IMG/VR virus record: IMGVR_UViG_2541047813_000002
Source: a virus
Taxonomy: Duplodnaviria; Heunggongvirae; Uroviricota; Caudoviricetes
Strand: one strand, 5' to 3'
Length of the DNA stretch: 19,395 nt
Part shown: piece after piece, positions 886 to 19,395 of the stretch
How positions within the stretch are numbered: position 1 is the stretch's first letter
How the letters are laid out: the number at the start of each line of letters is the position of its first letter
Notes under the pieces: model-generated
What the model was told of the DNA's origin: nothing
Databases searched by the model: none
The model's input: only the letters and a program-made list of their open reading frames with translations
Made by a program: the position numbers and the translations under genes

Positions 886-1173
886 TTACTGTCTCTGGCA
901 ATCTTTATCGCGATAACGCCTGAAGTACCCTCTCGCTTCCTCATCCATACCAAGAGCCGAATGAGTCCGCTTAACTGCCTGTCTTAAATCTCCGAATCTG
1001 TCTGTAGTTGCTGGTGGGCGTGCCGCCTTACGGATACATTCAGAGCGTCTGTTTGCTGCATGTTCACGTTCTTTATCGCCATCTGCCAGCATCATGACTT
1101 CTGCCCATCGTGCGGCAGCTCTCCGGTATAGCCCTTTTGACTCCAGCTCTTCAGCTTTCCTGTCCTTTATCAT
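886..1173 (-). CDS. PerC-family-like small transcriptional regulator (95 aa)
   Basis: ATG at 1173 with GAGAGG 5 nt upstream. Sequence MIKDRKAEELESKGLYRRAAARWAEVM... matches my recollection of the PerC/Pch family N-terminal signature (AEELExKGLxRRAAxRW); not verified by search. Confidence 0.55.
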   Translation of the reverse strand: MIKDRKAEELESKGLYRRAAARWAEVMMLADGDKEREHAANRRSECIRKAARPPATTDRFGDLRQAVKRTHSALGMDEEARGYFRRYRDKDCQRQ

Positions 1174-1209
1174 TTCTGCCTCTCAGATTATATAGATAAG
1201 CAAAAAGGT

Positions 1210-1330
1210 GTTGGTTCAGTTGGTTCAGTTGGTTCAATTTGTAAAGAGCGTTGTTTTTATTGTGTTTTTTCTAAAATATTGAACCAACATCAACTCATTT
1301 TGAACCAACACAGCCCAGCTCTGAACCAAC
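1210..1330. repeat. Iteron module A: three contiguous GTTGGTTCA 9-mers (1210-1236), 43-bp AT-rich spacer, three TGAACCAAC 9-mers at 21-bp spacing (1280, 1301, 1322)
   Basis: Read directly from sequence. Reverse complement of module B at 9393-9504. Confidence 0.75.
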
Positions 1331-1432
1331 AACACAGCGATAGATTTGTGATTGGTCCGTTATTTTCTGACTGATATTTGAGCGTATAACAGTGTTATAC
1401 AGTGGTATACTGTATGGATATTACTCACTGAT

Positions 1433-1873
1433 ATGGTCTTTGCAATGAGCAAATCTAATCTGATCGCGTTCCGCATCCCATCTGAATTGCAGGATGAGTT
1501 TAATCGGTCTGTTCTCGCTTCTGGAGGGGATAAAACCTCCTGGCTTGTTGATGCGATTCGCATGAAGCTGGGACAGCCGGAAAAGTCTATTGATTCACGA
1601 ATGCTTGGGCTGGTGGAGCGCATGGAAAAAGCCGCAGCATCGCTTATTGCCGGAAAGCCGAACATCCCACCAAAGCCATATAACGAAACGGCAGTTATAA
1701 AGATCATTGCCGATACCATCCGACAGGGATTTGATAATGGGCGTGTGATAGCTGAACGGCTCAATGAAGCAGGCTACCAAACAAAAGCTGGTAAAGCGTG
1801 GGATAAAGACATTTACAGCGCGTGGAAGCGTCAGGGTAACAATATTAAAAGAATCAATACGCTGCTTCAGTAA
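1433..1873 (+). CDS. Putative DNA-binding protein (146 aa) with RHH-like N-terminus and recombinase-type HTH-like C-terminal segment; start could be M5 at 1445
   Basis: ORF adjacent to iteron module A and to palindromes at about 1384-1415 (TATAACAGTGTTATA, ATACAGTGGTATACTGTAT). N-terminus KSNLIAFRIPSELQDEFNRSV and C-terminus IAERLNEAGYQTKAGKAWDKDIYSAWKR. Function is inferred. Confidence 0.55.
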   Translation: MVFAMSKSNLIAFRIPSELQDEFNRSVLASGGDKTSWLVDAIRMKLGQPEKSIDSRMLGLVERMEKAAASLIAGKPNIPPKPYNETAVIKIIADTIRQGFDNGRVIAERLNEAGYQTKAGKAWDKDIYSAWKRQGNNIKRINTLLQ

Positions 1874-1902
1874 TTGATCAGTGTATAAATGATATTTATC
1901 GC

Positions 1903-2925
1903 TCAATCGCTCCCTTTCCGCCCTTCAGCTACAGGGTCGTTGTCGGCGATAACAAAACCTAAGTCCTGAGAGAATCTCTCTCGTGGGAATCCTTTAGCAG
2001 GTAAACCCATTGAATCATATCCACATCCGGGAACATTTGGTTTAGAGTCAATAAGGTCTGCAATTTGCCGAAGCCATGTTGATCCCGGACCAAGTCGTTT
2101 AACTAAGTACCAGATAATACAGATCGCGCTAAAAATCCTCTCGCAACTCTCTGGATGGAGATTAAGTCCGTCAAAGTATTCATTATCCGGTACTGGAACT
2201 CGGGGATGCTTTCTATTCCATATTCTGGAATGGTGAGCGCAACGATTCCTTATGAGATTAAGGCACTTCAACCATTTTGCAAATGTCTGCTTATTATCAA
2301 TGCCAAAACGACGTATAATTTTCCCCTGCATATGACCATTAAGCATCGCATAATATTTAGACATCTGACCAAAATCCCATGTCTCCACCGCCACCCAAAA
2401 TGGAATCTCCTTGCCTTGGCTTCGATGCCATTCAATACAGTCATCTCTGCTTTCGTCTAATTTTACTTTTTGCTTATACACCCAATGCTCGAAGGCAGAT
2501 GAGAATTTTGGATTAATGTATTTTGATGACATGTAGGCAAGTGGATCATTGCGACCAACCTCATGCGCGATGACTGAACGAACATGAATCTCTATTCTTT
2601 CGATAGCATCAATCATCAAAAGACGCAGTTTTTTGTCAAAAAGATATAGATCGTACGTCTTCTCGAAACTGGTACCAGCAAGAAATCGGTCTGTTCTGTA
2701 CGAAAGACCTTTATCTGTTGTCGCAATAATTCTTGAAGGGTACCAAAAACCTGACAATCGATAATATCCAACCTGCGACAGCTTACGTATCGCACGATTT
2801 CGATCATTGATAATCATGCCACGTTCAAGTAGCAATCCTAGCAATTCGTGATAGTCCTTATGAGGCTTTGCGGCAATCATAGTGGCGAAACAAAAGATAA
2901 TAAAAGGCCCGACCGTGAAACTCAC
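1903..2925 (-). CDS. Abi_2 family (AbiD/AbiF-like) abortive-infection protein; true start possibly ATG at 2880
   Basis: KPHKDYHELLGLLLERGMIINDRNRAIRKLSQVGYYRLSGFWYP matches the conserved Abi_2 N-terminal signature (...YYRLSxYWYP). Lower-GC than the replication module. No convincing RBS at either candidate start. Confidence 0.8.
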   Translation of the reverse strand: MSFTVGPFIIFCFATMIAAKPHKDYHELLGLLLERGMIINDRNRAIRKLSQVGYYRLSGFWYPSRIIATTDKGLSYRTDRFLAGTSFEKTYDLYLFDKKLRLLMIDAIERIEIHVRSVIAHEVGRNDPLAYMSSKYINPKFSSAFEHWVYKQKVKLDESRDDCIEWHRSQGKEIPFWVAVETWDFGQMSKYYAMLNGHMQGKIIRRFGIDNKQTFAKWLKCLNLIRNRCAHHSRIWNRKHPRVPVPDNEYFDGLNLHPESCERIFSAICIIWYLVKRLGPGSTWLRQIADLIDSKPNVPGCGYDSMGLPAKGFPRERFSQDLGFVIADNDPVAEGRKGSD

Positions 2926-3682
2926 ATGCCTGAAATCGGCGGCGGAGAAACAGAGGATCGGGCTCGGTTGCCTGTAACTCTATCCGAAGTTATCCACATG
3001 TCAATGCACAGTTACTTAGGAAACTAACATAGATACTATCATCACTCACGAAAAACCACTATATGTGGTTTTTATTCATATCGTTATCCACTACAGGCTG
3101 TGTCAATAACTTTTACCTATTAATTGGGTAATTTCTACATTTTCCTATGCTGGCTAGTTTCTCTACTGAAAAGTTGGCACTCCTTAATCGCTTTTCGGTT
3201 AATACTATCGGTCTTCATATTGCCAGCAGCATACGCCATCCGATAATTTCTATGCTACGCGCGCGTACTTGTCGCAAAATATCAGGCAAAGGCCAGATTC
3301 AGAACGTCGTGATAACCACCAGCACAACATGAGATGTCATGTAACACGATTTATCACATCAGATACATGTGATTGGTGTACCCGCATAAAACATCGTCAT
3401 AGCGCGTCCTGTGCACATATACGCCGATAATCAACACATCACCACCACTCTGTCTCGTGTAGAGAACAGTTTCATGGTATCCCCCGCCATCGTGTGCGTA
3501 CTGGTCGGACGTAGTTGCAAAATTTTTGCAACTGATACCCCTCGCGCGCGTACTGGTCACGAAATTGGTGTTTTGCTGTGGCAGTGATATCAGAAAAATC
3601 TTCCTGTTTCACATAAAGCGGATATGCGCGTACTGTAACAGCCCCATCAACTGGGAGCGGATTTGAAATCCCGACCCAAGCT

Positions 3683-4102
3683 ATGTACCAAATGCCATGT
3701 CTTGGATATATGATGATTGCCATTCTAAACAAAGCTAAAGGGAGGGTTGGTGTGAATGCTCAGGCTGTCATCATGGTTTTCCTTGGTCTGATTGTCGCAA
3801 AACTATATCCAGACTGGTGGAAAGGGGCATTAGCAACTGTCGCCATCTATTTGCTTTTATCCGTCGTTAAGCGATCGTTCGTTAAGACCGTAAATCAAGC
3901 AAAACGTTTCTCATTTAAGAATTTAATAAACTATATTACTGGGCTTATTTTTTGCCTTTCACTTTTGATCGCTTCAGCTTTTTTGCCCGTATCAATAGCT
4001 AATTTTTTTGGCGCACCATATGAGGTAGGTTATCTATTCTCTGTTTTTTGTCTTGTTCTTTCCCTTCTTTACCTATGGATGAGAGCAAAGAACAAAAATT
4101 AG
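3683..4102 (+). CDS. Small polytopic membrane protein (about 116-139 aa); probable start GTG at 3752
   Basis: AAGGGAGGG sits 5 nt upstream of GTG 3752. Three to four hydrophobic helices (VIMVFLGLIVAKLY, ATVAIYLLLSVV, ITGLIFCLSLLIASAFL, LFSVFCLVLSLLYLW). AT-rich. Convergent with the 701-aa gene. Confidence 0.55.
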   Translation: MYQMPCLGYMMIAILNKAKGRVGVNAQAVIMVFLGLIVAKLYPDWWKGALATVAIYLLLSVVKRSFVKTVNQAKRFSFKNLINYITGLIFCLSLLIASAFLPVSIANFFGAPYEVGYLFSVFCLVLSLLYLWMRAKNKN

Positions 4103-4120
4103 CCATCCATGGCTAACCAG

Positions 4121-6226
4121 TTATTGAGCTTCTTTTTGTGATGCCTGTGCGACTCTGGTGAGCGATTGTGTGACCGTACTGATCGCTCTGTCATATGCTG
4201 TGCTACCTTTTGGCGTATTTGCCAGACGTAACAAGGCATTTCGTATAACAGGGCTTTCGTATGCCTTCGCTGCTCCGCCTACGGCACCAGCAGCAGGAAC
4301 AACAAACGCAGCCGTTTTTAGCATCCCCGCTAATACTGCTGCGTTTATGATGCCACCACCAACTAACAATCCATAAAGCTGCTGACCATTTAAGTTTTGA
4401 ACGTTCGCTTTTGCCGCGTGTCTTGTATCGTTGAGGTATTTAATAACGCCGTCCAGTTCCTTTCCATGTACGCCTTTAAAGAAAGTTGCTGATTGCTTCC
4501 TGTTCCGGTGTAACGCATTAATAAACTTCTCAACACTGATATTTCCAGACGGATCAGTCGCCTTATCTACAGCATTCTGAACTATGGCTGCTCGTGCGTT
4601 TTGCCTACCATTGTCATCCAGAAGCCTGTAAAGCTGAGAACGTTCTGATGGGCTTTGGCTAAAAACGAGTTTTGTTACATCCTCAGGCGTGGCCTTGCCG
4701 CTGGCTATTGCCTTTTGAACGCGCGTTCTTCCCATCATGTCATTGAATTTAGACCATGAACGATCAACCCTTGCCATATTAATGGCTTCGTCTGCTCCAA
4801 GATTTTTGGCTACGGCTTTTTTCATATCCGCCGTATATGCCTTGTAGATAATATCGCTGGCTTTCTGGAGCGTATCTTTATCAACAGTGTCAGATGACGC
4901 CATAAATCGCTTTCGAAGATCGGTTCTGTTTTCCCTCGCCAGACGCAGGTCATTTGGTCCGCTGGTGATATCGTCTTTAAATTGCTGCAAGACTTTTACC
5001 GCGGCTCTATCCTGAGATTTGCCCGGGCGGCTTAACACGGCAATCTGATTGTCGATAGCTTTTACCGTGTTTGAGAGATCGACAGGGGTATCCCCCATAG
5101 CGTCAATTATGCGGTTATATCGCTTTCCTGCTGCCTCAATGAATTTTTGTTGCCCTTTAGTCGCAGATTCATAAAGCTGTTTATCAGAAATGCCACCCAG
5201 ACCATCGCTAAATGTTCTGACTAAATTTTCTCGTGCTTGTTGTTGATTCAGCCGATTCTTACCGGTTCCAAAAAAAGGAACTCTTTCGCCTAATGTCTGA
5301 GCCTGACTCTGCATAAAGGTTTTATCTTTCAGCATGTCACTGGTCATTAACGGCAGATTTCTTTCCGATGCAAAGTCGACAGCAGCCTTTGCTTCAGGCG
5401 ACATATCACCACGAACAGCCCTCGAAACCGCACTCGCTGTATTTTCCAGCCCCTTACCAATACCACCAATGCCAGCAGAAATTACCGTTTGTAACGGTTC
5501 AATATCTTCTCCACCAGCAAGGCTAGTGGCTCCCTGTAGTGCTAAATCTGTAGCTGCTGATTTTCCTATGGCACCAAGCACCGTTCCAGCCCTGCCAGCT
5601 GGTGTAAACGCCAACGCATTAGCAAGAAACGAAGTCAGGTCTTGCGGTGATAAACCCGGCTTGTTCAGGGCATAATCACCTGATGGCAGAGAAACGATAG
5701 TATTCCCCTTCTCATCCTGCCTTAATGTCGCCCCCATTCCCTGAAGAATCTTTTCCTGAGACGCGTCAGAGCCGAAAAGTTGAGACCATCCAGCCTTTAG
5801 GGCATCCATGCTTAGTGAGTTCAATTCTGGGGCAGAGGCGACATTTTGCAGTCTCTCCATCTCTGGAGTCATTCGGCTTTCGCCTGTTATAGCATCGCGC
5901 ATCGCAGCCCCAAGACTGGCTCCCTGTTCTGCTGAACGCTCAAGCCCCTCTCTTTGCTGAGTAGCTAACTTTGCATACCCTGACGCAAGAGAATTATCAG
6001 ATGATGTATGTTGAATATTTTGAGTTGCTGATTGGGATCGGTCTATTTCATTCGTTGATGGTAGTGGATAGGCAGCATAAAAAGCCTGCTTAGCCTGCTC
6101 TACACTTTCTCCGGCTTGCGGGGCAACGACTTCATTGAAGTATTGCTCCTGAGCCTGCGCTTTTTGTTCTGGTGCTAACGCCTGATACTGTGGAGAGGCG
6201 ATAACATCTTTCCATGCTTTAGCCAT
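4121..6226 (-). CDS. Large Q/A/G-rich protein (701 aa) with C-terminal glycine-zipper hydrophobic segment; phage ejection/DNA-transfer protein-like (P22 gp16-like by size and position)
   Basis: Long ORF; ATGA start/stop overlap with the upstream gene at 6226; C-terminal LLVGGGIINAAVLAGMLKTAAFVVPAAGAVGGAAKA. The family assignment is an inference, not a match. Confidence 0.85.
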   Translation of the reverse strand: MAKAWKDVIASPQYQALAPEQKAQAQEQYFNEVVAPQAGESVEQAKQAFYAAYPLPSTNEIDRSQSATQNIQHTSSDNSLASGYAKLATQQREGLERSAEQGASLGAAMRDAITGESRMTPEMERLQNVASAPELNSLSMDALKAGWSQLFGSDASQEKILQGMGATLRQDEKGNTIVSLPSGDYALNKPGLSPQDLTSFLANALAFTPAGRAGTVLGAIGKSAATDLALQGATSLAGGEDIEPLQTVISAGIGGIGKGLENTASAVSRAVRGDMSPEAKAAVDFASERNLPLMTSDMLKDKTFMQSQAQTLGERVPFFGTGKNRLNQQQARENLVRTFSDGLGGISDKQLYESATKGQQKFIEAAGKRYNRIIDAMGDTPVDLSNTVKAIDNQIAVLSRPGKSQDRAAVKVLQQFKDDITSGPNDLRLARENRTDLRKRFMASSDTVDKDTLQKASDIIYKAYTADMKKAVAKNLGADEAINMARVDRSWSKFNDMMGRTRVQKAIASGKATPEDVTKLVFSQSPSERSQLYRLLDDNGRQNARAAIVQNAVDKATDPSGNISVEKFINALHRNRKQSATFFKGVHGKELDGVIKYLNDTRHAAKANVQNLNGQQLYGLLVGGGIINAAVLAGMLKTAAFVVPAAGAVGGAAKAYESPVIRNALLRLANTPKGSTAYDRAISTVTQSLTRVAQASQKEAQ

Positions 6227-7359
6227 TAATCACCCCATAGTGAAGAAAAGTTACTGCTGGCTGCTGGCTGTGATACCTGCTCAGATTGCGGCAATGTCTG
6301 CGACGAAGAAGAAGTTCCTCTGTCAACTGCTGAAATAACCCGCAAAGCATCATAAGCTCGACCAGAAGCAGCTTTCAGCGAATTGAACTGGTTTTCCATC
6401 TTCCGGCGCTTGGTATCAATGGTTTTTGTGGAGTCGCCAGGCTGAGGGAAATACATTTGATAATATTTTGACATTTCAGCAGGTGCGATAGCTGCCCCTG
6501 TTTCCTGACGGAGTATTGCCATTATTGCGTCATTAGCATTAACAACGTATTGCTGCTCTGTTGGGCTGAGCGTTAAGTTAGCCAGCGTCCCATTACCCAA
6601 AGCATTATTAATGATCGCCACTCGCTGTGGGCTAAGCTGGTCTCTCAGTGTATCTATTGAATCAAGAGCATCCCTAACCCTGTATGCAAATCCAGCAGCT
6701 TTTTTAGCCCCTTCTGGCGACTTTTCCATGATCTTTTGGGCTGTTGGCAAAGCTATTGGACGAAACCCATCTCCAGATATTGGCTGGTTTAGTTTTCCCT
6801 GCTCTTCACTTCCGTCTGTGTAGTATTTTGTGACAGTGCCATCATCGTTTTCTCTAACACTCATTAATTTTTTGGCGTTTGTATTAATTCCAGCCGCTGC
6901 CGCAAATGCCGCCGCCCCCTCTGGATCCGCCTTTAACATTTGAGCGTACTGATTGTAATTCTGCATTGCTGCTGTTGGTGCATATGCTGACGTTAACGCA
7001 TTTGCTCGGCTAATATCCTGCCCTCTCGCCTGAAGTGCTTCGCCAGCCTGATTGCTGCGGATTGTTTCTGCCAACTTGCCACGCTCAATATCCCGACCTT
7101 CCATTTGATCTTTGATATCGAAATACTTCTCATGACCGAGAGAAAACAGTGCCATACTACCAGCAAGCCGCTGGAATCCCTGTGGATCATTAACATGCAT
7201 TTCGGCAACAGACTCAGGAGAAATTCCCAAGCGACGCATTTCATCTTCGTTATCTGCTATGAATTTTCCAAATGCCCCAGTTCCGAGCGAAGATGCGATT
7301 TGAGCACTAGTCGCAAGATGACCAATAGAATTTCTCTGGTCGTCATCAATAAAGCCCAT
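6226..7359 (-). CDS. C-terminal 377 codons of an apparently split ~470-aa gene (P22 gp20-like size)
   Basis: Reading frame stays open and protein-like upstream of the ATG back to a TGA at 7420-7422. No usable RBS before ATG 7359 (AAAGGG abuts the ATG). Confidence 0.75.
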   Translation of the reverse strand: MGFIDDDQRNSIGHLATSAQIASSLGTGAFGKFIADNEDEMRRLGISPESVAEMHVNDPQGFQRLAGSMALFSLGHEKYFDIKDQMEGRDIERGKLAETIRSNQAGEALQARGQDISRANALTSAYAPTAAMQNYNQYAQMLKADPEGAAAFAAAAGINTNAKKLMSVRENDDGTVTKYYTDGSEEQGKLNQPISGDGFRPIALPTAQKIMEKSPEGAKKAAGFAYRVRDALDSIDTLRDQLSPQRVAIINNALGNGTLANLTLSPTEQQYVVNANDAIMAILRQETGAAIAPAEMSKYYQMYFPQPGDSTKTIDTKRRKMENQFNSLKAASGRAYDALRVISAVDRGTSSSSQTLPQSEQVSQPAASSNFSSLWGD

Positions 7360-7634
7360 CCCTTTCTGAACGCTTTCAAATTCTTCTGGATACTCAGCAT
7401 TTTGTTTCTGTCTCCAGACTCAAAAGCCCCGGCATATGCTTTCTGAAACTCTGCTTTACGCTGTTGTTGACGTGCCTGCTGATTAATCTCAGCAACGCCT
7501 CTTAGCCCCTGTAGCGCCATTAAACCTACGTTTGGCTGCTGCTGATACTGCACAGGCTGAGGAACGGAAGAACGAGGAGCATTATCATTTTGCGGTGCCA
7601 TGCTAGGCAGCCCGCCAAGTTGCCATGTCGCCAT
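7257..7634 (-). CDS. N-terminal fragment of the same split gene; translationally coupled to the upstream 225-aa gene (TAATG); protein-like only for the first ~80 codons
   Basis: ATG 7634 overlaps the stop of the 225-aa gene. Sequence is Q-rich like its neighbours until about 7400, then becomes junk-like (ALLMTTREILLVILRLV) where the 377-codon frame takes over. Confidence 0.5.
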   Translation of the reverse strand: MATWQLGGLPSMAPQNDNAPRSSVPQPVQYQQQPNVGLMALQGLRGVAEINQQARQQQRKAEFQKAYAGAFESGDRNKMLSIQKNLKAFRKGWALLMTTREILLVILRLVLKSHLRSELGHLENS

Positions 7635-8311
7635 TAGAATCCAAGCCCCCCAACAAGACCAATAAGCCCACCACCAATAGCCCCGGCGACATTACCTATA
7701 CCCGGAACAACGGAACCAAGTTGCGCACCCGCTAAAGCGCCTGATGCCGCCCCACCAATACCACGCGCAAGACTGGATGGCTGCTGCGCCTGACCTGCAC
7801 GAATAGCGCCAAGCCCCTGCAAGAGTTGCCCGGTATTATTGGCGTAGTTTTGCCCTGCTGTTGCCTGCCCTGATGCCGCATTCATCCCGACATTTAGCAG
7901 GTTTCCATAATTTTGCATTTGCCCACTAAGCCAATTGTTATAAAGCATGGGCGCAATGGAAGATAACTGGTTACTGGTAGCTGTTGAGCCAAGCCCCCCG
8001 GTAGCTTCTGCTGAGACAAGGTTCTGATAACGGGCCTGATCTGCCTGTGTTTTATATAAACCAGAACCAAAGAAATCATTCGCGGCTTTATTCTGCCCTT
8101 CCAGAGTCATCAGTCCTTGTAGTTGTTGTAAAGCAGGCAATCCGACTTCTGCATACGGCTTGAGATTATTCATCACCGTATTCCACTGCTCGCGCTGCAA
8201 ATCAATTGCCTGCTGCTGGGCCTTCGCCTGAGCTTTAGAGGCACCACCATCACCGCCTTTTTCGTATACGGCACGATTGAGATGTTTATGAGCTATATGG
8301 GTAATTAACAT
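7634..8311 (-). CDS. Q/G-rich protein (225 aa) with C-terminal glycine-zipper; ejection-protein-like (P22 gp7-like size)
   Basis: ATG 8311 with AAGGAA upstream; overlaps the stop of the 153-aa gene. Contains EKGGDGGASKAQAKAQQQ and ends GIGNVAGAIGGGLIGLVGGLGF. Confidence 0.85.
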   Translation of the reverse strand: MLITHIAHKHLNRAVYEKGGDGGASKAQAKAQQQAIDLQREQWNTVMNNLKPYAEVGLPALQQLQGLMTLEGQNKAANDFFGSGLYKTQADQARYQNLVSAEATGGLGSTATSNQLSSIAPMLYNNWLSGQMQNYGNLLNVGMNAASGQATAGQNYANNTGQLLQGLGAIRAGQAQQPSSLARGIGGAASGALAGAQLGSVVPGIGNVAGAIGGGLIGLVGGLGF

Positions 8312-8766
8312 TCGCTGAATTCCTTATATTGTTGCCGAGTTAACTGATAAAGCGTTACGCCGACGGGTTTACCACATCTGATATAAGCATCATCAAGGTG
8401 ACCAACACGGGTAGCGCCAAGCAAACGGATAATTGCCCGTCCGTATTTGGTGGTGTCAGGAACCATGGTAATGCTGTTAAGGAATGGTGAGTTTTCGAGA
8501 AGCCATTTGCAGAATAATCGATGCCCTTGCAGTGCATATTCACCACGGAATCCGGGGTCGTACACCGCATGGCATTCAACAATGCTATGCCAGAAGTTAC
8601 GCACTTCATGAACGCCAGCCAGCACCAATCCTTCGTAGATACCGAGATATACCGCATCAGGCTTGATGTAGTACGTGTGCCCCGGCTCAACAATATTTTC
8701 GGTATTGCCAGGCTCGTTAAGAAAGGCCTGTAATCGCACAGGGTTATCAATAAATTTTAGTTCCAT
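8305..8766 (-). CDS. Hypothetical protein (153 aa), first large gene of the operon
   Basis: ATG start; ORF; stop overlaps the start of the next gene. Confidence 0.8.
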   Translation of the reverse strand: MELKFIDNPVRLQAFLNEPGNTENIVEPGHTYYIKPDAVYLGIYEGLVLAGVHEVRNFWHSIVECHAVYDPGFRGEYALQGHRLFCKWLLENSPFLNSITMVPDTTKYGRAIIRLLGATRVGHLDDAYIRCGKPVGVTLYQLTRQQYKEFSEC

Positions 8767-8782
8767 GCGATGCCATCCATTT

Positions 8783-8944
8783 TCACATACAGCCTGCCAG
8801 CGCCTTATCTATTAACCCTCGTGCAATTTCATGCAGAGTTGGCGCTACTCCAATTCCTGATTTTTTACGCTGCTCTTCCTGAATTTTCTTTATCGCTTCC
8901 ATTTGCTTCTCACTTATCAATACCGGCTTTACTGAAATAGCCAT
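8783..8944 (-). CDS. Small RHH-like (ribbon-helix-helix) protein, 53 aa, below the ORF-track size cutoff
   Basis: ATG 8944 preceded by AAGGGGG (4-nt spacer). MAISVKPVLISEKQMEAIKKIQEEQRKKSGIGVAPTLHEIARGLIDKALAGCM has a beta-strand-helix-helix pattern. Ends 16 nt before the 153-aa gene. Confidence 0.45.
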   Translation of the reverse strand: MAISVKPVLISEKQMEAIKKIQEEQRKKSGIGVAPTLHEIARGLIDKALAGCM

Positions 8945-9039
8945 AACGCCCCCTTAGAACTGTATAAAACAACAGTTATTATAGTTTCATAAATCGCAAT
9001 ATTCATCATCGTGATTGCAAAATATGAAACAAATAGCAC

Positions 9040-9071
9040 AAAAAAATGCCACCGCTCAGTAGCTGGTGGCA
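9040..9071 (-). terminator. Rho-independent terminator for the primase transcript
   Basis: On the minus strand: TGCCACC-11 nt-GGTGGCA hairpin followed by TTTTTTT (plus-strand A-run 9040-9046). Confidence 0.55.
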
Positions 9072-9265
9072 TCGTTCTGTGTGTCAGGTTTTGACAGGTT
9101 TTTTATGGACTCTAAAAACTATATTTATGGTGTCGCATTACTCTTCACGGAAGGCGCTTTCCAGTTCTGCCCTTGCTTCTGGCTCCATTGGTAATTTGAT
9201 TCGCGATCAGCTATGCGGATGGTTTGCTGAACAGGCATAACAACTTCTCAGGGGCTGTTTTCTGA

Positions 9266-9342
9266 ACTACGAAAATTTCGTAGTGCTCACTTTCAAAAAC
9301 GTCACGCCCTTGTACACAGGATTTTACGAAAGTCTCGTAAAA
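9266..9342. promoter_or_regulatory. Two palindromes sharing TACGAAA half-sites within the origin region
   Basis: ACTACGAAAATTTCGTAGT (9266-9284, perfect 9-bp arms) and TTTTACG-7nt-CGTAAAA (9322-9342). Confidence 0.35.
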
Positions 9343-9392
9343 CACTCTCTGATGCCAGCCAGGTGTTGTGCGCATCAATTCAGTCACATTGT

Positions 9393-9504
9393 GTTGGTTC
9401 AAAATACCGTGTTGTTGGTTCAGTGTTGGTTCAATAAAAAGAATAAAATCCTTATAAAACAACACTCTTTACAAATTGAACCAACTGAACCAACTGAACC
9501 AACG
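9393..9504. repeat. Iteron module B (putative ori): GTTGGTTCA at 9393, 9414, 9425; AT-rich spacer; three contiguous TGAACCAAC at 9478-9504
   Basis: Read directly; lies between the primase stop (9529) and the terminator; reverse complement of module A. Confidence 0.75.
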
Positions 9505-9528
9505 CCTTTTCTACGCACATGAAGAAGC

Positions 9529-12288
9529 TCATTCTTCAGATGAGTTGTAATCTCCTGGCTGGTAATTGAGTACATAAACGTTTATTTGTCGTCCCTGAAT
9601 ACGTGGTGATTTTCTTTGGTATCCACGACCGCTGTTTGGTGGGGTTAGCATCCCGGCTTTTTTCAACACTTCAGCAAACTGTTTTGCGTTGAAACCACAT
9701 GCGATCTCCTTTTCAAATGTGGCCGGGAATGTGTAGAAAATCATTGGGCTTTCGTCATGTTCTCCACGCTGACGGTATCCGGCTAAATCTTTGATGGGCA
9801 AATCTGCCGGGCTGTATGGAAATGGTGCAAAACGGCTAAGCCCATAGGCATTAAGAAATGCCTCCGTTTGTTCAATAATCTGCTGATGTTCTTTGTTACC
9901 TGTGCCGAACTCGCGCAACCATGCGTTATAGCTGTGCTGTATCGCATCACGGCATGTCTGAGCATCCCAGCCTGTTACAACCTCGCCTAACAGCAATGCG
10001 GCCTCCAGAATGGCAAATCGCGCGGCTACACGGTGAACCTGCTCACCATAATCGGATGGGATCAGACTTCTCCATCTGCTTTCGCAGTCACGAACAGTTT
10101 TAATTGCCTGTTGCTGGTGGTCTGCCAGCCATTTAATCCACTCACGCCCGGCTGCGCCGTGGTGATGCTGGTAAGCGTCTTTCAGTGCGTCTGCGTGCTG
10201 TTTTCCGTTCTGGTAATCGTGAAAGCGTACTGCTTTACTCAACGGAATATTCAGCAGTCGCACCAGTTGTCCGGCTTTGGTTTTTCGCCCGGAAGTAGCG
10301 ATAAATGTTTCTAAATCCATTTCTCCGGTGCTGATTGCCACTGTACGCCAGCGTTTTAGATCCCGGTTTCCACCATCTTTAGCGCCTTGCAGTTTCCCTA
10401 CACCGTTAAATAACGCATAGGCAGACTGTGAAACACTGACAGGATCAGCGCCCTGACCAACTTCATCAAGCGGCATTAGTCCGTCATTGTGGGCGGCGGC
10501 TTCATTTGCCAGCCCCAGCGCGGTTCCGTACCACGTCAGCCGCAGTAAATCAGGGTTGCCGTATAAGCTGCTCGCCACGTTTGCCGTGGTGGTCTTACCT
10601 GCGCTCGACTGCTCATAGAAATGAATGCCGAACCCGTCAGCGCCCACCAGCCCAATCAATGGCGCTGCCAGTGCTGCGCCGATCCCGGTCATCATTGAAT
10701 AGTTACCAAAGGCCAGACGCGCCACGTTATCACGCCAGCTTTTCGCGCTCCCTGAGACGGTATATCCGGCTGCGGCTGAGCTTCTCCCGCTGAACAGCAC
10801 AGGATTTTCAGGTGTTCCGATGATTTCCCCATCAGGCATGATGTACGCTCCGCATTGCCAGCCAGTGGCATGAGCAACACGCCACAATTCACGAGAGCCA
10901 CTGCGTTGTAGCCAGTCTGCCAGTATTGCTCTGAGGCTGCTTTTGGTCGTGACATTTACCCCACCAGCTTTAAGTGTGCGCCATCCTTCACGTTCACCAA
11001 TATCAGCCAGTGGAATGGCAGCGGTTGTCGGCGTTTCAGAACCAAACGACAGCCAGCGAAGAATGAGATACTGGTCTTTATCGTCTCTGCCAGTACCGAT
11101 AACGCTTAACGGCGAACATAACCAGCTTTCGTTATTGATGATTTCTCCACTCTGGCTGTCAGCTCTCGGAGATACCCAATAAATACCATCCTCTCGGCTT
11201 TCTATTCTTGGTTTCAGTGGGTCGGTATCCATAACCTTAAAATCGCTTCCCTCAATGGTCTGTGGCTCCTGTTTCACGCCATTACCCTGTGGTTGGTACA
11301 TTGACTTATTGAACGTTTCTGTGGCGCATTTAATGCCGTGTTTTTGGTGGTAATCATTCCAGTCTGCTTTGTGATCTGTCGGGGGTAATGCCACCCATCC
11401 AGAAACAGATAAAGCTGCTTTTTCTGCTGCTATTCTCCCCGTGTTTTGTCTTCCTTCGCTGTGGTCGTTATCCGCAGCAATGATGATTTGTGCTGAAGGA
11501 TATTTATCCCGCAGTACCTGGGCGACATATAACAGGTTCCCGGCATCAATCGCCGCCACTGTCAGCGCCTCTGGACGAATTAAATGGGCAGATAATGCCG
11601 TTGCCAGCCCTTCTGCGATTAAGATGCTCTGTGTTGTTTCTGGTGCGTTTATGGCGTGATATGCTCCCCGTTTTGCTGAACCTGTCAGGAGTCTTTTTTC
11701 ACCATGTGAGGTAATAGTCTGTGCTGCTGTGACTGCGCCGGATTTATCCACCAGCGCCAGCAACAGAGATCCATCGGGCAACACGGGGAATGTAAAATCA
11801 CCTACCCCTTTCGCAACCAGATAATCAGATTTACCGTTTACAGCCTTTCTGCGCATGTCATCAAACTGACGGGAAAACGTATCCCGTCTTTGTTGTTCGT
11901 CCTTCTCTGCCCTTTTCAGGCGCTCCTGTTCGCGTCGCTGGCGCTCGGTTTCCAGTTGTTCCCGTTTCTGGCTGGTGGCTTCTGGTGTTTCCGTTGTCCG
12001 GTAATCAATACCCAGAACATCAGCGGCAAGAAGCGCCGCCTCTGTTGTGTCGCAGTTATTTACGCGTTTAATTAAATCCAGCCCATCACCAGCGCCGCAC
12101 TGATTACAGATGAAGCTACCGCGCCCGTTGTCATCGAACCGGAATCGATCTTTGCCCCCACATGCAGGGCAGGGAGCATGACGGCGCGGAGAGTCAGGGA
12201 CATTTATGTTCAGGCAGCCCAGCACATGAGGCCAGTTGTTTTCAGACGCACTGATAACCTGACGGATAAGATCAATGTTTCGCATCAC
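9529..12288 (-). CDS. Primase with zinc-ribbon and Toprim domains plus a P-loop NTPase-like domain (P4 alpha-like); probable start ATG at 12285
   Basis: CPACGGKDRFRF...FICNQCG zinc ribbon; Toprim acidic motif IIIAADNDH; P-loop-like SSAGKTT; 919-aa ORF. Confidence 0.95.
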   Translation of the reverse strand: MMRNIDLIRQVISASENNWPHVLGCLNINVPDSPRRHAPCPACGGKDRFRFDDNGRGSFICNQCGAGDGLDLIKRVNNCDTTEAALLAADVLGIDYRTTETPEATSQKREQLETERQRREQERLKRAEKDEQQRRDTFSRQFDDMRRKAVNGKSDYLVAKGVGDFTFPVLPDGSLLLALVDKSGAVTAAQTITSHGEKRLLTGSAKRGAYHAINAPETTQSILIAEGLATALSAHLIRPEALTVAAIDAGNLLYVAQVLRDKYPSAQIIIAADNDHSEGRQNTGRIAAEKAALSVSGWVALPPTDHKADWNDYHQKHGIKCATETFNKSMYQPQGNGVKQEPQTIEGSDFKVMDTDPLKPRIESREDGIYWVSPRADSQSGEIINNESWLCSPLSVIGTGRDDKDQYLILRWLSFGSETPTTAAIPLADIGEREGWRTLKAGGVNVTTKSSLRAILADWLQRSGSRELWRVAHATGWQCGAYIMPDGEIIGTPENPVLFSGRSSAAAGYTVSGSAKSWRDNVARLAFGNYSMMTGIGAALAAPLIGLVGADGFGIHFYEQSSAGKTTTANVASSLYGNPDLLRLTWYGTALGLANEAAAHNDGLMPLDEVGQGADPVSVSQSAYALFNGVGKLQGAKDGGNRDLKRWRTVAISTGEMDLETFIATSGRKTKAGQLVRLLNIPLSKAVRFHDYQNGKQHADALKDAYQHHHGAAGREWIKWLADHQQQAIKTVRDCESRWRSLIPSDYGEQVHRVAARFAILEAALLLGEVVTGWDAQTCRDAIQHSYNAWLREFGTGNKEHQQIIEQTEAFLNAYGLSRFAPFPYSPADLPIKDLAGYRQRGEHDESPMIFYTFPATFEKEIACGFNAKQFAEVLKKAGMLTPPNSGRGYQRKSPRIQGRQINVYVLNYQPGDYNSSEE

Positions 12289-14466: not shown

Positions 14467-15315
14467 GTGCCACCTCCATGCGGATACGACCAGCAAAAAA
14501 GCAGACGTGATCGCGCACCAGAGAACGGCGAGCATCGCGTTCAGACTCGGCAGCAATATGATGAATTTTGGCGGTAATTGTCGGGCAATCGCGGCGAACT
14601 GCGGCGATAATCCAGATAAATTGCGTTTTTTGGGTAGGGGTAGTAGCCAGCATGTGGCAGCCTCCTTGTACTGGGAATTCTTCCCACCACCGGAGCTGCG
14701 AAACTCGCTGGTGGTGGACTGAACAGAGTTCGCAGTACCGGCGTACAAGGAAACCGGCCAGCCTTTCGGCTGCCCTGTCCAGCCCACCATAATTTTGCAA
14801 GCGACGCGGATTATAACCACATCACTGAAAAAAGTGTGAGTCTGGCTAACGGCACAAAAAAAGACGCTCGGCGCGTCATGTGTCGCCTCGTACATTTCCG
14901 GGCTGCGAAACCCGGCACCCGTTTTATGAGGTGCCTTATAACCATAAACCGTGTTGCCGCATAACGGCAAGCTCTTTTTTATGGACTCCGAAAACTCACT
15001 ATTGGAAGAACCAGAAGCACAGTACATCGTGCTCATTTCGTTAACGTCACGCGCGTGGACGAATGTTTTTGTGGAGTCACTACACGAGCGGAAGACATCA
15101 TCTACGACCAGAAATTTTCTGGCGCAGCCGCTGACCTTCTCAATGCTAATATCATCGCCCGAGATTTCTGGTATGGTTAAGGCATCCGTTCCGACCACCA
15201 GCAAATGATAAACTTTGCTTGTATCTGCTGTATTAATGCCTGACTTTGCCGTCATATTGCTGGATTTTGGCGACATGCCAGCCAGTGAAAATGTCTTCTT
15301 CTGGACGGTTAGCAT
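14248..15315 (-). CDS. Long ORF (355 codons) anchored by a well-supported start at 15315; the 3' extent is doubtful and it may be chimeric. The N-terminal ~150 codons are protein-like.
   Basis: GGAGGTT sits 6 nt upstream of ATG 15315, which overlaps the upstream stop (ATGCTAA). The distal half is W/P/C-rich and overlaps two RBS-supported small ORFs. Confidence 0.4.
14459..14653 (-). CDS. Possible small protein (64 aa; [11 protein letters not shown]...), or part of a structured non-coding region
   Basis: AAGGAGG sits 7 nt upstream of ATG 14653; stop coupled to the next start. The region also has open frames on several other strands and frames and nested inverted repeats. Confidence 0.35.
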   Translation of the reverse strand: MLATTPTQKTQFIWIIAAVRRDCPTITAKIHHIAAESERDARRSLVRDHVCFFAGRIRMEVAHD

Positions 15316-18037: not shown

Positions 18038-18180
18038 ACGCCACCCCGCGCCCCCTAATTCTGACGGCTATGCCAGCCCGTAGGGGTGTACGGGTTTTCG
18101 GGGATCAGCCTAGACATAGCCTATTCTTTGTTCGTCTACATAAGTCTACTACCATTGCTTAACACTGTCTATTCATACAG

Positions 18181-19395
18181 TTAAGCTCGTTTCCCAAACG
18201 AACCATGAACAACGTTCTCCTCCTTCTCCAGCGCATCCATATAGTCGGCATACCATTGAAGCATCTCCCGCCGTCCATCCAGATATTGCGCATGGTTGTA
18301 TGTGCCACGAATTGAGTTCTTATCAACGTGAGCGAGCTGCGTTTCTATCCACGCGGTGTTATAGCCCTGCTCATGCAAAATCGTGCTCATAGTGTGTCGG
18401 AACCCATGACCAGTTACACGTCCAGCGTAGCCAATGCGCTTAAACACTTGGTTTATGCTGGCCTCACTCATTGTTTTCCTTGGATCATTGCGCCCGGGAA
18501 ACATAAGAGGGTAATTGCCTGTTATTTCTCTAATCTTCCCAATAAGCGAAAGAGCCTGCTCAGACAATGGCACAATATGAGGCCGCCGCATTTTCATACG
18601 TGAAGCGGGTATCTCCCAGATAGCCTTGTTGAAATCAATTTCATCCCATAATGCGCCACGTAGTTCGCCAGTCCGCAAGCCGGTGATAATCAGTAGACGA
18701 GCCGCCATAACAACCAATGCGCTTCCTGAGTAACTGGACAATGCCTTGAAAAAATCAGGTAATTCTTTAGCTGTAAGGAAAGGGTAATGATTAGATTCAT
18801 GGCCTTGCATCGCGCTAGTAAGGTCTGGTGCAGGGTTATACTCTGCGCGACCAGTGACTATTGCATAGCGGAAAACTTCCCCGCACCGTTGCCTCACTTT
18901 TTTGGCTTTTTCTGTCGCACCGCGCCCCTCGATGCGCCGCAGCACATTCAGAAGTTCAAGTGGTTTGATTTCGGCGATTGGTTTTTTGCCAATGTAAGGG
19001 AACACATCTTTGTTGAAGGCTTCGAGGATGTCTGAAGCATAACCAGCAGACCATTTTTTTAATTTGCTGCTGTGCCACTCAAGGGCAATATCTTTGAAGG
19101 TGTTGTTTAACTGCGTTTCCCGGGCAATCTTTTCCTCTCGTTTCGCTTCCATCGGATCGATACCACCAGCGATACCTCTTTTCGCATCTTCACGTTTTGC
19201 CCGAGCATCGGCTAGAGTAACCTCAGGATACACACCTAGTGCCAATAGCTTCTCTTTACCAGCTACACGATATTTAAGTCGCCAGTATTTACCTCCATTA
19301 GGTTTTACCAAGAGATACAAACCGCCACCATCGGCCAGCTTGTAAGCCTTCTCTTTTGGCTTGGCTGTGTCTATTTGACGGGCATTGAGTTTCAC
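18181..19395 (-). CDS. int: Tyrosine integrase, P4-type (404 aa); apparent GTG start at the window edge
   Basis: Catalytic motifs HGFRHTMSTILHE (HxxR) and IRGTYNHAQY (Tyr nucleophile); N-terminal arm-binding domain. Confidence 0.95.
   Translation of the reverse strand: MKLNARQIDTAKPKEKAYKLADGGGLYLLVKPNGGKYWRLKYRVAGKEKLLALGVYPEVTLADARAKREDAKRGIAGGIDPMEAKREEKIARETQLNNTFKDIALEWHSSKLKKWSAGYASDILEAFNKDVFPYIGKKPIAEIKPLELLNVLRRIEGRGATEKAKKVRQRCGEVFRYAIVTGRAEYNPAPDLTSAMQGHESNHYPFLTAKELPDFFKALSSYSGSALVVMAARLLIITGLRTGELRGALWDEIDFNKAIWEIPASRMKMRRPHIVPLSEQALSLIGKIREITGNYPLMFPGRNDPRKTMSEASINQVFKRIGYAGRVTGHGFRHTMSTILHEQGYNTAWIETQLAHVDKNSIRGTYNHAQYLDGRREMLQWYADYMDALEKEENVVHGSFGKRA

Follow-up and report, generated by a model that had tools for sequence, protein, structure and literature searches.

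The window analyzed here (the whole of IMG/VR record IMGVR_UViG_2541047813_000002, 19,395 nucleotides [nt]) is a variant of EcCIMP1, a phage-inducible chromosomal island (PICI) at tRNA-Thr, and it contains two inverted copies of an iteron module about 8.2 kb apart: module A (1203-1335), beside a PerC-family regulator gene, and module B (9390-9510), beside the gene for a primase-helicase that we refer to as Pri-Rep. It is highly probable, on the sequence evidence presented below, that both modules are Pri-Rep binding arrays of one origin system. We go further, with a probability of about 0.55, and read A and B as the two inverted halves of an origin of the type found in PICIs and in staphylococcal pathogenicity islands (SaPIs), here that of an EcCIMP1-type island, which would have been split by cargo in this lineage.

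The modules form the strongest inverted repeat of the window, with arms of 55 nt that are 96% complementary (1203-1257 and 9456-9510) and a further pair of arms of 38 nt that are 82% complementary (1275-1312 and 9390-9427); the remaining inverted repeats of the window are all 28 nt or shorter. The 9-mer TGAACCAAC occurs in exactly 12 exact copies, all of them within the two modules (starts in module A at 1210, 1219 and 1228 on the minus strand and 1280, 1301 and 1322 on the plus strand; in module B at 9393, 9414 and 9425 on the minus strand and 9477, 9486 and 9495 on the plus strand). With up to one mismatch the window holds 17 copies, compared with 4.7 +/- 2.1 in dinucleotide shuffles, and 17 was reached in 0 of 200 shuffles. 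One plan is common to both modules: a tight triplet of three head-to-tail iterons with a 9-base-pair (bp) period, a spacer of about 43 bp and about 80% A+T, and three opposed, loosely spaced iterons that stand one or two helical turns apart (21/21 bp in module A, 21/11 bp in module B). When A is aligned to the reverse complement of B, similarity is confined to about 130 bp and the flanks are unrelated. The alignment takes in the start of the spacer (ATTTGTAAAGAG[C/T]GTTGTTTT); an earlier reading of the window (referred to as the sequence-only reading) had described module A as the reverse complement of module B including this start, and it was right in this and in its coordinates. The first 21 nt of the module A spacer, ATTTGTAAAGAGCGTTGTTTT, are common to module B, and the likeness of the A and B spacers within an element is limited to these 21 nt. 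An Rfam search placed an RNA family at neither module. Coordinates of individual features are collected in Table 1.

Module B, taken as a candidate origin from its sequence, has the canonical position and architecture of a SaPI/PICI origin. Origins of Gram-negative PICIs lie directly 3' of pri-rep, and in EcCICFT073 a pri-rep-ori segment drives plasmid replication (PMC6092414); SaPI origins consist of 6-12 iterons that follow rep closely and surround an AT-rich centre, with two or more opposed iterons on each side, and these iterons are read by a winged helix in the C-terminal domain of Rep (PMC9371898). The iteron cluster of module B lies immediately 3' of the initiator gene, 25 nt from its stop codon; both modules have three plus three opposed iterons around a spacer of 79-81% A+T; and the initiator is, by homology and modeling, a Rep/Cch-type helicase with a C-terminal winged helix as the predicted iteron reader. 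The window thus resembles SaPIbov1, SaPI1 and EcCICFT073 in the position of the origin 3' of pri-rep, in opposed iterons around an AT-rich region and in a self-loading hexameric helicase as initiator, but differs from them in a second, inverted iteron/AT-rich module 8.2 kb away (0.14 to 10.5 kb in relatives, with accessory genes between). Elements of this type, their class of initiator and the place that module B occupies are known already; the distal inverted partner, the polymorphism between compact and split forms, and the covariation of the initiator with its iterons, all described below, are not in the papers on these elements (PMC6092414, PMC9371898 and PMC11773190).

We surveyed relatives with the primase as query, which gave 77 loci from one-genome-per-species contigs (about 130 related loci over all collections). 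In nearly all of the 77 (at least 60 loci) the iteron cluster begins 26-60 bp past the primase stop codon, and it takes one of two forms. In the compact form, approximately 8-12 iterons form a single block that has tight triplets, inverted to each other, at its two ends, and the distal triplet is followed by a box, CACCTTTTT(A/G)CTTAT(A/C)TATA, that is also the sequence next to module A in the window; the tight triplet of module A is homologous to this distal triplet, and its outer flank is the same. In the split form, a six-iteron module by the primase is accompanied, in the 77-locus survey, by a second module 0.35-9 kb downstream, which in every split locus has the inverted orientation seen in the window, its tight triplet facing outward and its loose iterons inward. 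Viral contigs, scanned for exact matches to the tight-triplet pattern, yielded 17 compact and 8 split pairs, 25 of 25 with the same polarity and none in any other arrangement; four other matches, consisting of six tandem 9-mers without a primase, were treated as unrelated. Pooling the non-redundant pairs gave 33 compact (144-392 bp apart) and 17 split (1.2-10.5 kb apart), all of the same polarity. Over the approximately 130 loci the two triplets stand 144-290 bp apart in the compact form, in many relatives within a block of about 250 bp, and 0.4-10.5 kb apart in the split form. The sequence-only reading would have been contradicted by relatives with one module only or by module A repeats confined to this locus; related elements carry two modules, and the repeats recur in them. 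The proximal array can also vary in length: in an Erwinia locus (L063) its tight array, at +32 to +171 from the primase end, consists of seven tandem iterons rather than three, indicating that a tight array can expand like a short tandem repeat.

How the two forms are related is visible in two sister elements of one species, L047 (compact) and L014 (split), which have module B in common and a distal triplet with outer flank that is 89% identical; between those anchors lie about 120 bp in L047 versus about 5.85 kb in L014. On a neighbor-joining tree of 34 primases, parsimony requires at least eight changes between compact and split forms, a count that recombination could inflate. The interval contains whatever genes lie downstream of the origin in a given element, and the position of PerC is variable; a homologue of the 146-residue gene of the window (p146) or an AlpA-like gene usually stands just inside module A. 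Complete elements exist in both forms: in two Klebsiella circles of 19 and 22 kb (L083 and L084) a single 250-bp block contains all 11 iterons, and a complete 12.2-kb E. coli circle (L002; NZ_CP148430.1) has two modules 1.9 kb apart. These circles, together with L085 and other records of 10-23 kb, are whole elements deposited as small circular non-mobilizable plasmids of E. coli, Klebsiella and Raoultella, suggesting that, even without deliberate induction, the excised form persists or replicates in detectable amounts. Autonomous replication of this type of element is indicated indirectly and by analogy, from circular records of 12-22 kb and from the circularization and transfer of EcCIMP1 (PMC11773190).

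Within split elements the two modules keep distinct signatures across genera: proximal (B-type) modules have 11/21 spacing and a TTTTATAAGG spacer, and distal (A-type) modules, kept in at least nine genera, have 21/21 spacing and a TTTCAAAAAG spacer. Because the signatures are distinct across genera, A and B appear to be old paralogous sites, separately maintained under long-term selection, and no recent duplicate. The same observation bears on the idea that module A is a non-functional leftover, either of a duplication or of recombination between two satellites. Decayed remnants that hold only PerC and module A (L003 and L082) speak for such an origin; the retention of an A-type module with its own signature across so many genera, and an iteron type that changes together with module B and the primase, would be unexpected for neutral DNA, and we find this idea scarcely credible. 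The remnants themselves (L003 in Survcare253, L082 in O111:NM FWSEC0005) carry PerC and a module-A-type array without a primase, one beside a lambdoid prophage fragment at thrW and the other near a relocated ykgL-ykgR block by zur/dusA, and their orphan arrays could titrate Rep of incoming satellites. The single-module E. coli records H58 and H80 proved to be decayed remnants; having no primase, they are uninformative on intact elements.

The initiator connects the two modules more closely. Residues 403-814 of Pri-Rep are homologous to the 'Pathogenicity island protein' of structure 8tch (SaPI Rep; E = 1e-11), and the protein has weaker sequence homology to 5dgk, the Cch helicase of SCCmec. 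Modeled by AlphaFold from a 34-sequence alignment (mean pLDDT 83), the fragment of residues 700-919 ends in strands, two helices and a beta-hairpin, and residues 892-897 are in this modeled hairpin (the wing), after the helices. Foldseek matched the whole 700-919 fragment to Cch 5dgk (probability 1.0) and its terminal approximately 100 residues to 5vfx, a winged-helix protein solved on oriT DNA (probability 0.98, TM score 0.63). Across relatives the iteron itself comes in several types (TGAACCAAC, TGAGACAAC, ACGGGTTA, GAACCGAC, GTCGGGTA, GTGGGTTA, GGGATAAGT and AACCGACC), and split elements with variant iterons have the same variant in both modules (AACCGAC in L043, GGGATAAGT in L064). In an alignment of 52 primases, 34 of them from elements with TGAACCAAC and five from elements with TGAGACAAC, we took as fixed any difference that is fixed in the five and unlike the residue common to at least 90% of the 34. 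All six fixed differences fall at primase residues 824 and 892-897; the wing motif is QRKS-PRI in 34/34 TGAACCAAC elements and QGRV--RE in 5/5 TGAGACAAC elements. Elements of the ACGGGTTA type have fixed differences at residues 883-904. Because of this covariation and the fold, the C-terminal winged helix of the primase is very probably the reader of both modules, with R892-K893-S894-P895-I897 as the proposed specificity residues.

In split pairs the spacers of both modules are AT-rich in 17 of 17 cases (lower value of each pair 0.63-0.81), and in the 231-bp compact class the distal triplet has a GC-rich neighbor and no AT-rich spacer of its own (A+T 0.33-0.51), suggesting that in this class it acts together with the melting region on the proximal side. 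One alternative is that A and B are two independent, redundant origins, each a self-sufficient SaPI-type module in an inverted layout that has no cooperative meaning. Each module does have the SaPI minimum of at least two opposed iterons on each side (PMC9371898), but redundancy leaves unexplained both the uniform polarity of every pair and the 231-bp class, which keeps a distal triplet without its own AT-rich spacer; we consider this alternative improbable. A second alternative makes module B alone the origin and module A a negative copy-control or incompatibility array in the style of P1 incA or F incC, which would titrate Rep or handcuff the origin and might also serve as an operator through which Rep represses or times the PerC transcription unit. 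Second iteron arrays with control roles are established in P1 and F (textbook knowledge), a circular plasmid-like form in which copy control would matter exists, some relatives seem to manage with one module, and in most elements a gene starts 37-60 nt past the distal triplet, after a conserved TTTT-GCTTATATATA box with a -10-like hexamer. Yet pure titration would not call for the origin-like plan of module A, which in each of the 17 split elements includes an AT-rich spacer; a consensus scan found no promoter, and the TATAAT is separated by only 14 nt from the ATG of PerC; and the downstream gene is not always PerC. We regard control by module A as unlikely, although it carries the most weight among the alternatives.

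Several points weigh against the split-origin reading itself. Each module looks complete alone, as would be expected just as much of two independent origins or of an origin with a separate control array. About 11 related loci have one six-iteron module only within 10 kb on either side, so a single module may suffice, unless the partner lies beyond 10 kb. If there was recombination, the primase tree may not mirror how the origin region evolved, and the test of spacer similarity within elements (below) ignores relatedness among elements. The anatomy of the modules, their conservation and polarity, the covariation of iteron and protein, and the absence of inversion are observed; Pri-Rep binding, cooperation between A and B, a requirement for module A in cis and an effect on a promoter are what we infer.

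The pair had also been proposed as substrates for inversion or capture of the intervening segment, and recombination is suggested by the 55 nt of near-identity in inverted orientation and by the highly variable cargo between the modules. The 21 nt beside the tight triplet differ at 5.1 positions within an element versus 6.3 between elements, a value reached in a fraction of 0.0002 of 20,000 permutations (which do not preserve relatedness among elements), and the rest of the spacer has no within-element likeness (permutation 0.97). These 21 nt look homogenized within elements, a hint of short-tract A-B homogenization by occasional gene conversion, which would explain the 55-nt identity of A and B. 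Inversion as such finds no footing: a synthetic A x B junction, searched in 5,426 complete E. coli genomes with a match threshold of at least 80% junction coverage, was found in 0 of the 616 genomes that carry the sequences, and no pair of opposite polarity occurs in any collection, including the 25 paired viral-contig loci. No dedicated invertase lies near the repeats; the sole recombinase is the tRNA-site tyrosine integrase, about 9 kb from module B. As for capture, variable cargo does sit between the halves, but nothing shows the repeats mediating its capture, and exchange of cargo requires only flanking homology, not these repeats specifically. A recombination function for the repeats is, in our estimation, very unlikely.

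The closest precedent for such distant arrays is ori/crr of satellite P4, with an initiator of another family; P4 alpha loops ori and crr together. In the annotated P4 record crr lies directly 3' of alpha, ori lies 4.7 kb away between divergent genes, and the same type-1 repeat occurs in both. P4 and the window therefore have in common two separated arrays of one iteron, one just 3' of the primase gene and the distal one between divergent genes kilobases off; both are integrase-bearing enterobacterial satellites, and both encode a fused primase-helicase with a C-terminal origin-binding domain and a homologous N-terminal Zn-ribbon/Toprim region. They differ in that P4 crr is a direct 120-bp duplication and ori is upstream of the operon, whereas the modules of the window mirror each other in inverted orientation, with the partner downstream; the iteron sequences are unlike as well. 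Alignment to P4 alpha covers only Pri-Rep residues 8-362 (primase; 32% identity, E = 3e-41), and Pfam finds D5_N/DUF5906/Pox_D5 in alpha versus DUF927 in Pri-Rep. Membership in the alpha family was rejected on the ground that the helicase and origin-binding domains differ (DUF927 plus a Cch-like C-terminal domain). The suggestion of an ori/crr-like pair, as in P4, survives as a functional analogy of layout, with both arrays conserved and an iteron type that changes in both together and tracks the primase wing, but fails as a statement of family, only the N-terminal primase being homologous to alpha. Among iteron plasmids, arrays of one iteron are paired or looped by Rep across kilobases in P1 (oriR/incA), F (incB/incC) and R6K (gamma with the alpha/beta origins). 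These plasmids share with the window several arrays of one Rep-binding iteron, but their Rep is not a helicase, their auxiliary arrays are without origin-like mirror geometry, and they have no satellite life cycle.

On the split-origin reading, Pri-Rep (Toprim plus DUF927) would be a self-loading initiator-helicase of the SaPI-Rep/Cch type whose winged helix reads the 9-bp iteron. After induction by a helper phage and excision, Pri-Rep hexamers would assemble on both arrays. The arrays might then be joined by protein-protein contact with the cargo looped out, in the manner of P4 alpha on ori and crr, or one helicase might be loaded on each array, in opposite directions; by either route the pair would act as a single bidirectional origin. 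Cooperation of A and B by looping or by oppositely directed helicase loading is, in our judgment, somewhat favored. In the lineage of the window, late and accessory genes (ejection proteins, AbiD) would have come to stand between the triplets, with module A having its own AT-rich spacer and three loose iterons. Dependence on a helper is experimental in the near-identical backbone of EcCIMP1 (PMC11773190) and is presumed by analogy to carry over to the variant in the window.

A gap of 36 nt separates the outer triplet of module A from the PerC start, and occupancy of the triplet by Rep may modulate PerC. The outer flank holds a TATAAT (1187-1192, minus strand), the box quoted above follows the distal triplet in every iteron type, and the sequence-only reading had suggested that module A may double as an operator shared by its divergent neighbors. 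The TATAAT between the tight triplet and PerC leaves this conceivable for PerC, but a strict sigma-70 consensus scan around both modules passed no promoter (a terminator scan of the same regions gave a single terminator-like site, at 9048-9063, away from the modules), and the 146-residue gene has operator-like repeats of its own (1378-1410). Tandem GTAAGACAG, in two or three copies, is found upstream of p146 homologues in other genera (L021/L022/L028/L061/L014/L023/L025/L041), also without adjacent iterons, and in compact-origin loci there is no third iteron site beside p146, only these repeats. The repeats are likely to be the operator of the 146-residue gene itself, outside the origin, and the case for a shared operator is possible but weak.

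PICI and SaPI origins have been described as single compact iteron blocks beside rep (PMC6092414, PMC9371898). In the present family that plan occurs both as a compact block and as halves separated by accessory genes (up to 10 kb), with at least eight switches between the two arrangements. The family thereby offers a natural series of distances in which to ask how widely a self-loading MCM-like initiator can space its two helicase-loading sites, and whether these are looped together as by P4 alpha. The system is experimentally tractable, as EcCIMP1, which has Kapi1 as its helper, carries the same modules. The covariation of wing and iteron (QRKS-PRI with TGAACCAAC, QGRV--RE with TGAGACAAC) yields a recognition code that can be tested directly, both for the specificity of origins and for incompatibility among co-resident satellites, and, for annotation, the modules account for a conspicuous 55-bp inverted repeat in approximately 10% of complete E. 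coli genomes. A more adventurous idea, to which we give little credence, is that the gap between the origin halves is an origin-embedded cargo hotspot in which initiation at two modules, or Rep looping, favors gain, loss and swapping of accessory genes. If true, hotspot cargo (ejection proteins, AbiD) would be replicated first or last, its dosage would be coupled to satellite induction, and this would be a new principle of organization and exchange of satellite accessory modules, distinct from the P4 psu-int defense hotspot and from the end-of-island accessory regions of SaPIs.

Table 1. Positions of the origin modules and of neighboring genes and repeats in the window
Feature	Position	Strand	Description
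PerC-family regulator gene	886-1173	-	Pfam PerC 3e-33; directly outside module A
Conserved outer flank of module A	1174-1209	-	CACCTTTTTGCTTATCTATATAATCTGAGAGG; between tight triplet and PerC start; possible Rep-controlled promoter
Module A tight triplet	1210-1236	+	Three tandem GTTGGTTCA, 9-bp period, facing outward to PerC
Module A AT-rich spacer	1237-1279		79% AT; candidate DNA-unwinding region
Module A loose iterons	1280-1330	+	Three TGAACCAAC, 21/21-bp spacing, inverted relative to tight triplet
Inter-module cargo	1331-9392		All genes between A and B
p146 repeats	1378-1410	+	Three repeats of ~10 bp, TATAACAGTG / TTATACAGTG / GTATACTGTA, between module A and 146-residue gene
146-residue regulator-like gene (p146)	1433-1873	+	
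AbiD/Abi_2 abortive-infection gene	1903-2925	-	PADLOC AbiD 8e-58
139-residue open reading frame	3683-4102	+	
gp16-like ejection gene	4121-6226	-	P22-type
gp20-like ejection gene, frameshifted	6226-7634	-	Open reading frames 6226-7359 and 7257-7634
gp7 ejection gene	7634-8311	-	
DUF2824 gene	8305-8766	-	
53-residue open reading frame	8783-8944	-	
Module B loose iterons	9393-9433	-	Three TGAACCAAC, 21/11-bp spacing
Module B AT-rich spacer	9434-9476		81% AT; candidate melting region of primase-proximal origin
Module B tight triplet	9477-9503	+	Three tandem TGAACCAAC; end 25 nt from primase stop codon
Pri-Rep (919 residues)	9529-12288	-	Zn-ribbon and Toprim primase, DUF927 helicase, C-terminal winged helix; Pfam

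Among the best matches listed, E. coli chromosomes are 97.5-99.8% identical to the window across 91-100% of its length, and in strain YP3 the element adjoins tRNA-Thr between proA and a vat/MarR island. Positions 1-339 and 19057-19395 form a direct repeat that is 89% identical: the left copy comes from the integrase of the neighboring vat/MarR island, of which it is the truncated N-terminus (Arm DNA-binding domain), and the right copy is the PICI's own intact integrase, the two islands standing in tandem at tRNA-Thr. The minus strand encodes the integrase, DUF6387, AlpA, an AntA antirepressor, Ash, several small open reading frames (ORFs) and the primase-helicase, followed by the 53-residue ORF, DUF2824, P22 gp7-, gp20- and gp16-like ejection genes, AbiD and then PerC; the plus strand encodes the 139- and 146-residue ORFs. 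The content is that of a PICI (integrase, AlpA and primase without structural or lysis genes, approximately 10-20 kb, at a tRNA-Thr site). The gene context given in the sequence-only reading is correct in that PerC and the 146-residue gene diverge from module A and that Abi_2/AbiD and P22-type ejection genes lie between the modules, but its ribbon-helix-helix/helix-turn-helix label for the 146-residue protein and its 'membrane protein' label for the 139-residue ORF have no profile match. The N-terminus of the 146-residue protein does resemble a ribbon-helix-helix domain, yet without a Pfam match.

EcCIMP1 of E. coli MP1 excises, circularizes and is transduced only when the P22-like phage Kapi1 is present, and its PerC orthologue, EcCIMP1_025, silences LEE1 expression (PMC11773190). 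The iteron has 12 exact copies in the sequence of EcCIMP1, divided between the same two modules, of which one adjoins PerC and the other the primase; a replication origin or iterons are not described in the paper on this island (PMC11773190). EcCIMP1 and the window have in common the tRNA-Thr site, the backbone (int, AlpA, AntA, Ash, primase, ejection genes and PerC) and the module positions. They differ at the distal cargo, where EcCIMP1 has a hypothetical gene and alpA_1 and the window has AbiD and the 146-residue gene, in the size of the gp16-like gene, and in the gp20-like gene, which is frameshifted in the window. The distal end of the inter-module interval in this respect resembles a swappable defense/regulator slot.

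The window encodes a full P22-type ejection set at 4121-8944 on the minus strand, made up of the 53-residue ORF, DUF2824, gp7 and the gp20- and gp16-like genes, with 86-96% DNA identity to short stretches of Sf6/P22-like podophages including Kapi1, the likely type of helper. A satellite that provides its own ejection proteins for helper capsids is unusual; the EcCIMP1 paper mentions these genes only as packaging candidates (PMC11773190). A 13-bp deletion at 7396 relative to strain YP3 breaks the gp20-like gene into two ORFs, so that it is probably a pseudogene, if this is not a sequencing error. Rfam matches at gathering level are a C4 antisense RNA (14707-14794, minus strand, 81 bits), isrK (14857-14934, minus strand, 69 bits) and int-alpA RNA (18053-18120, minus strand, 47 bits). 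The first two, C4 and isrK, fall within the Ash ORF region, on the downstream side of AntA, and the equivalent region of EcCIMP1 is annotated with an Icd-like gene; this placement suggests that the PICI contains an immunity module of the c4/icd/ant kind, like P1 immI. In the stretch from PerC to the island end, a 39-nt direct repeat beginning CCTAACCCATTG (721-759 and 775-813, 72% identical), with a short hairpin-like sequence after each copy, may represent integrase arm sites or part of attR.

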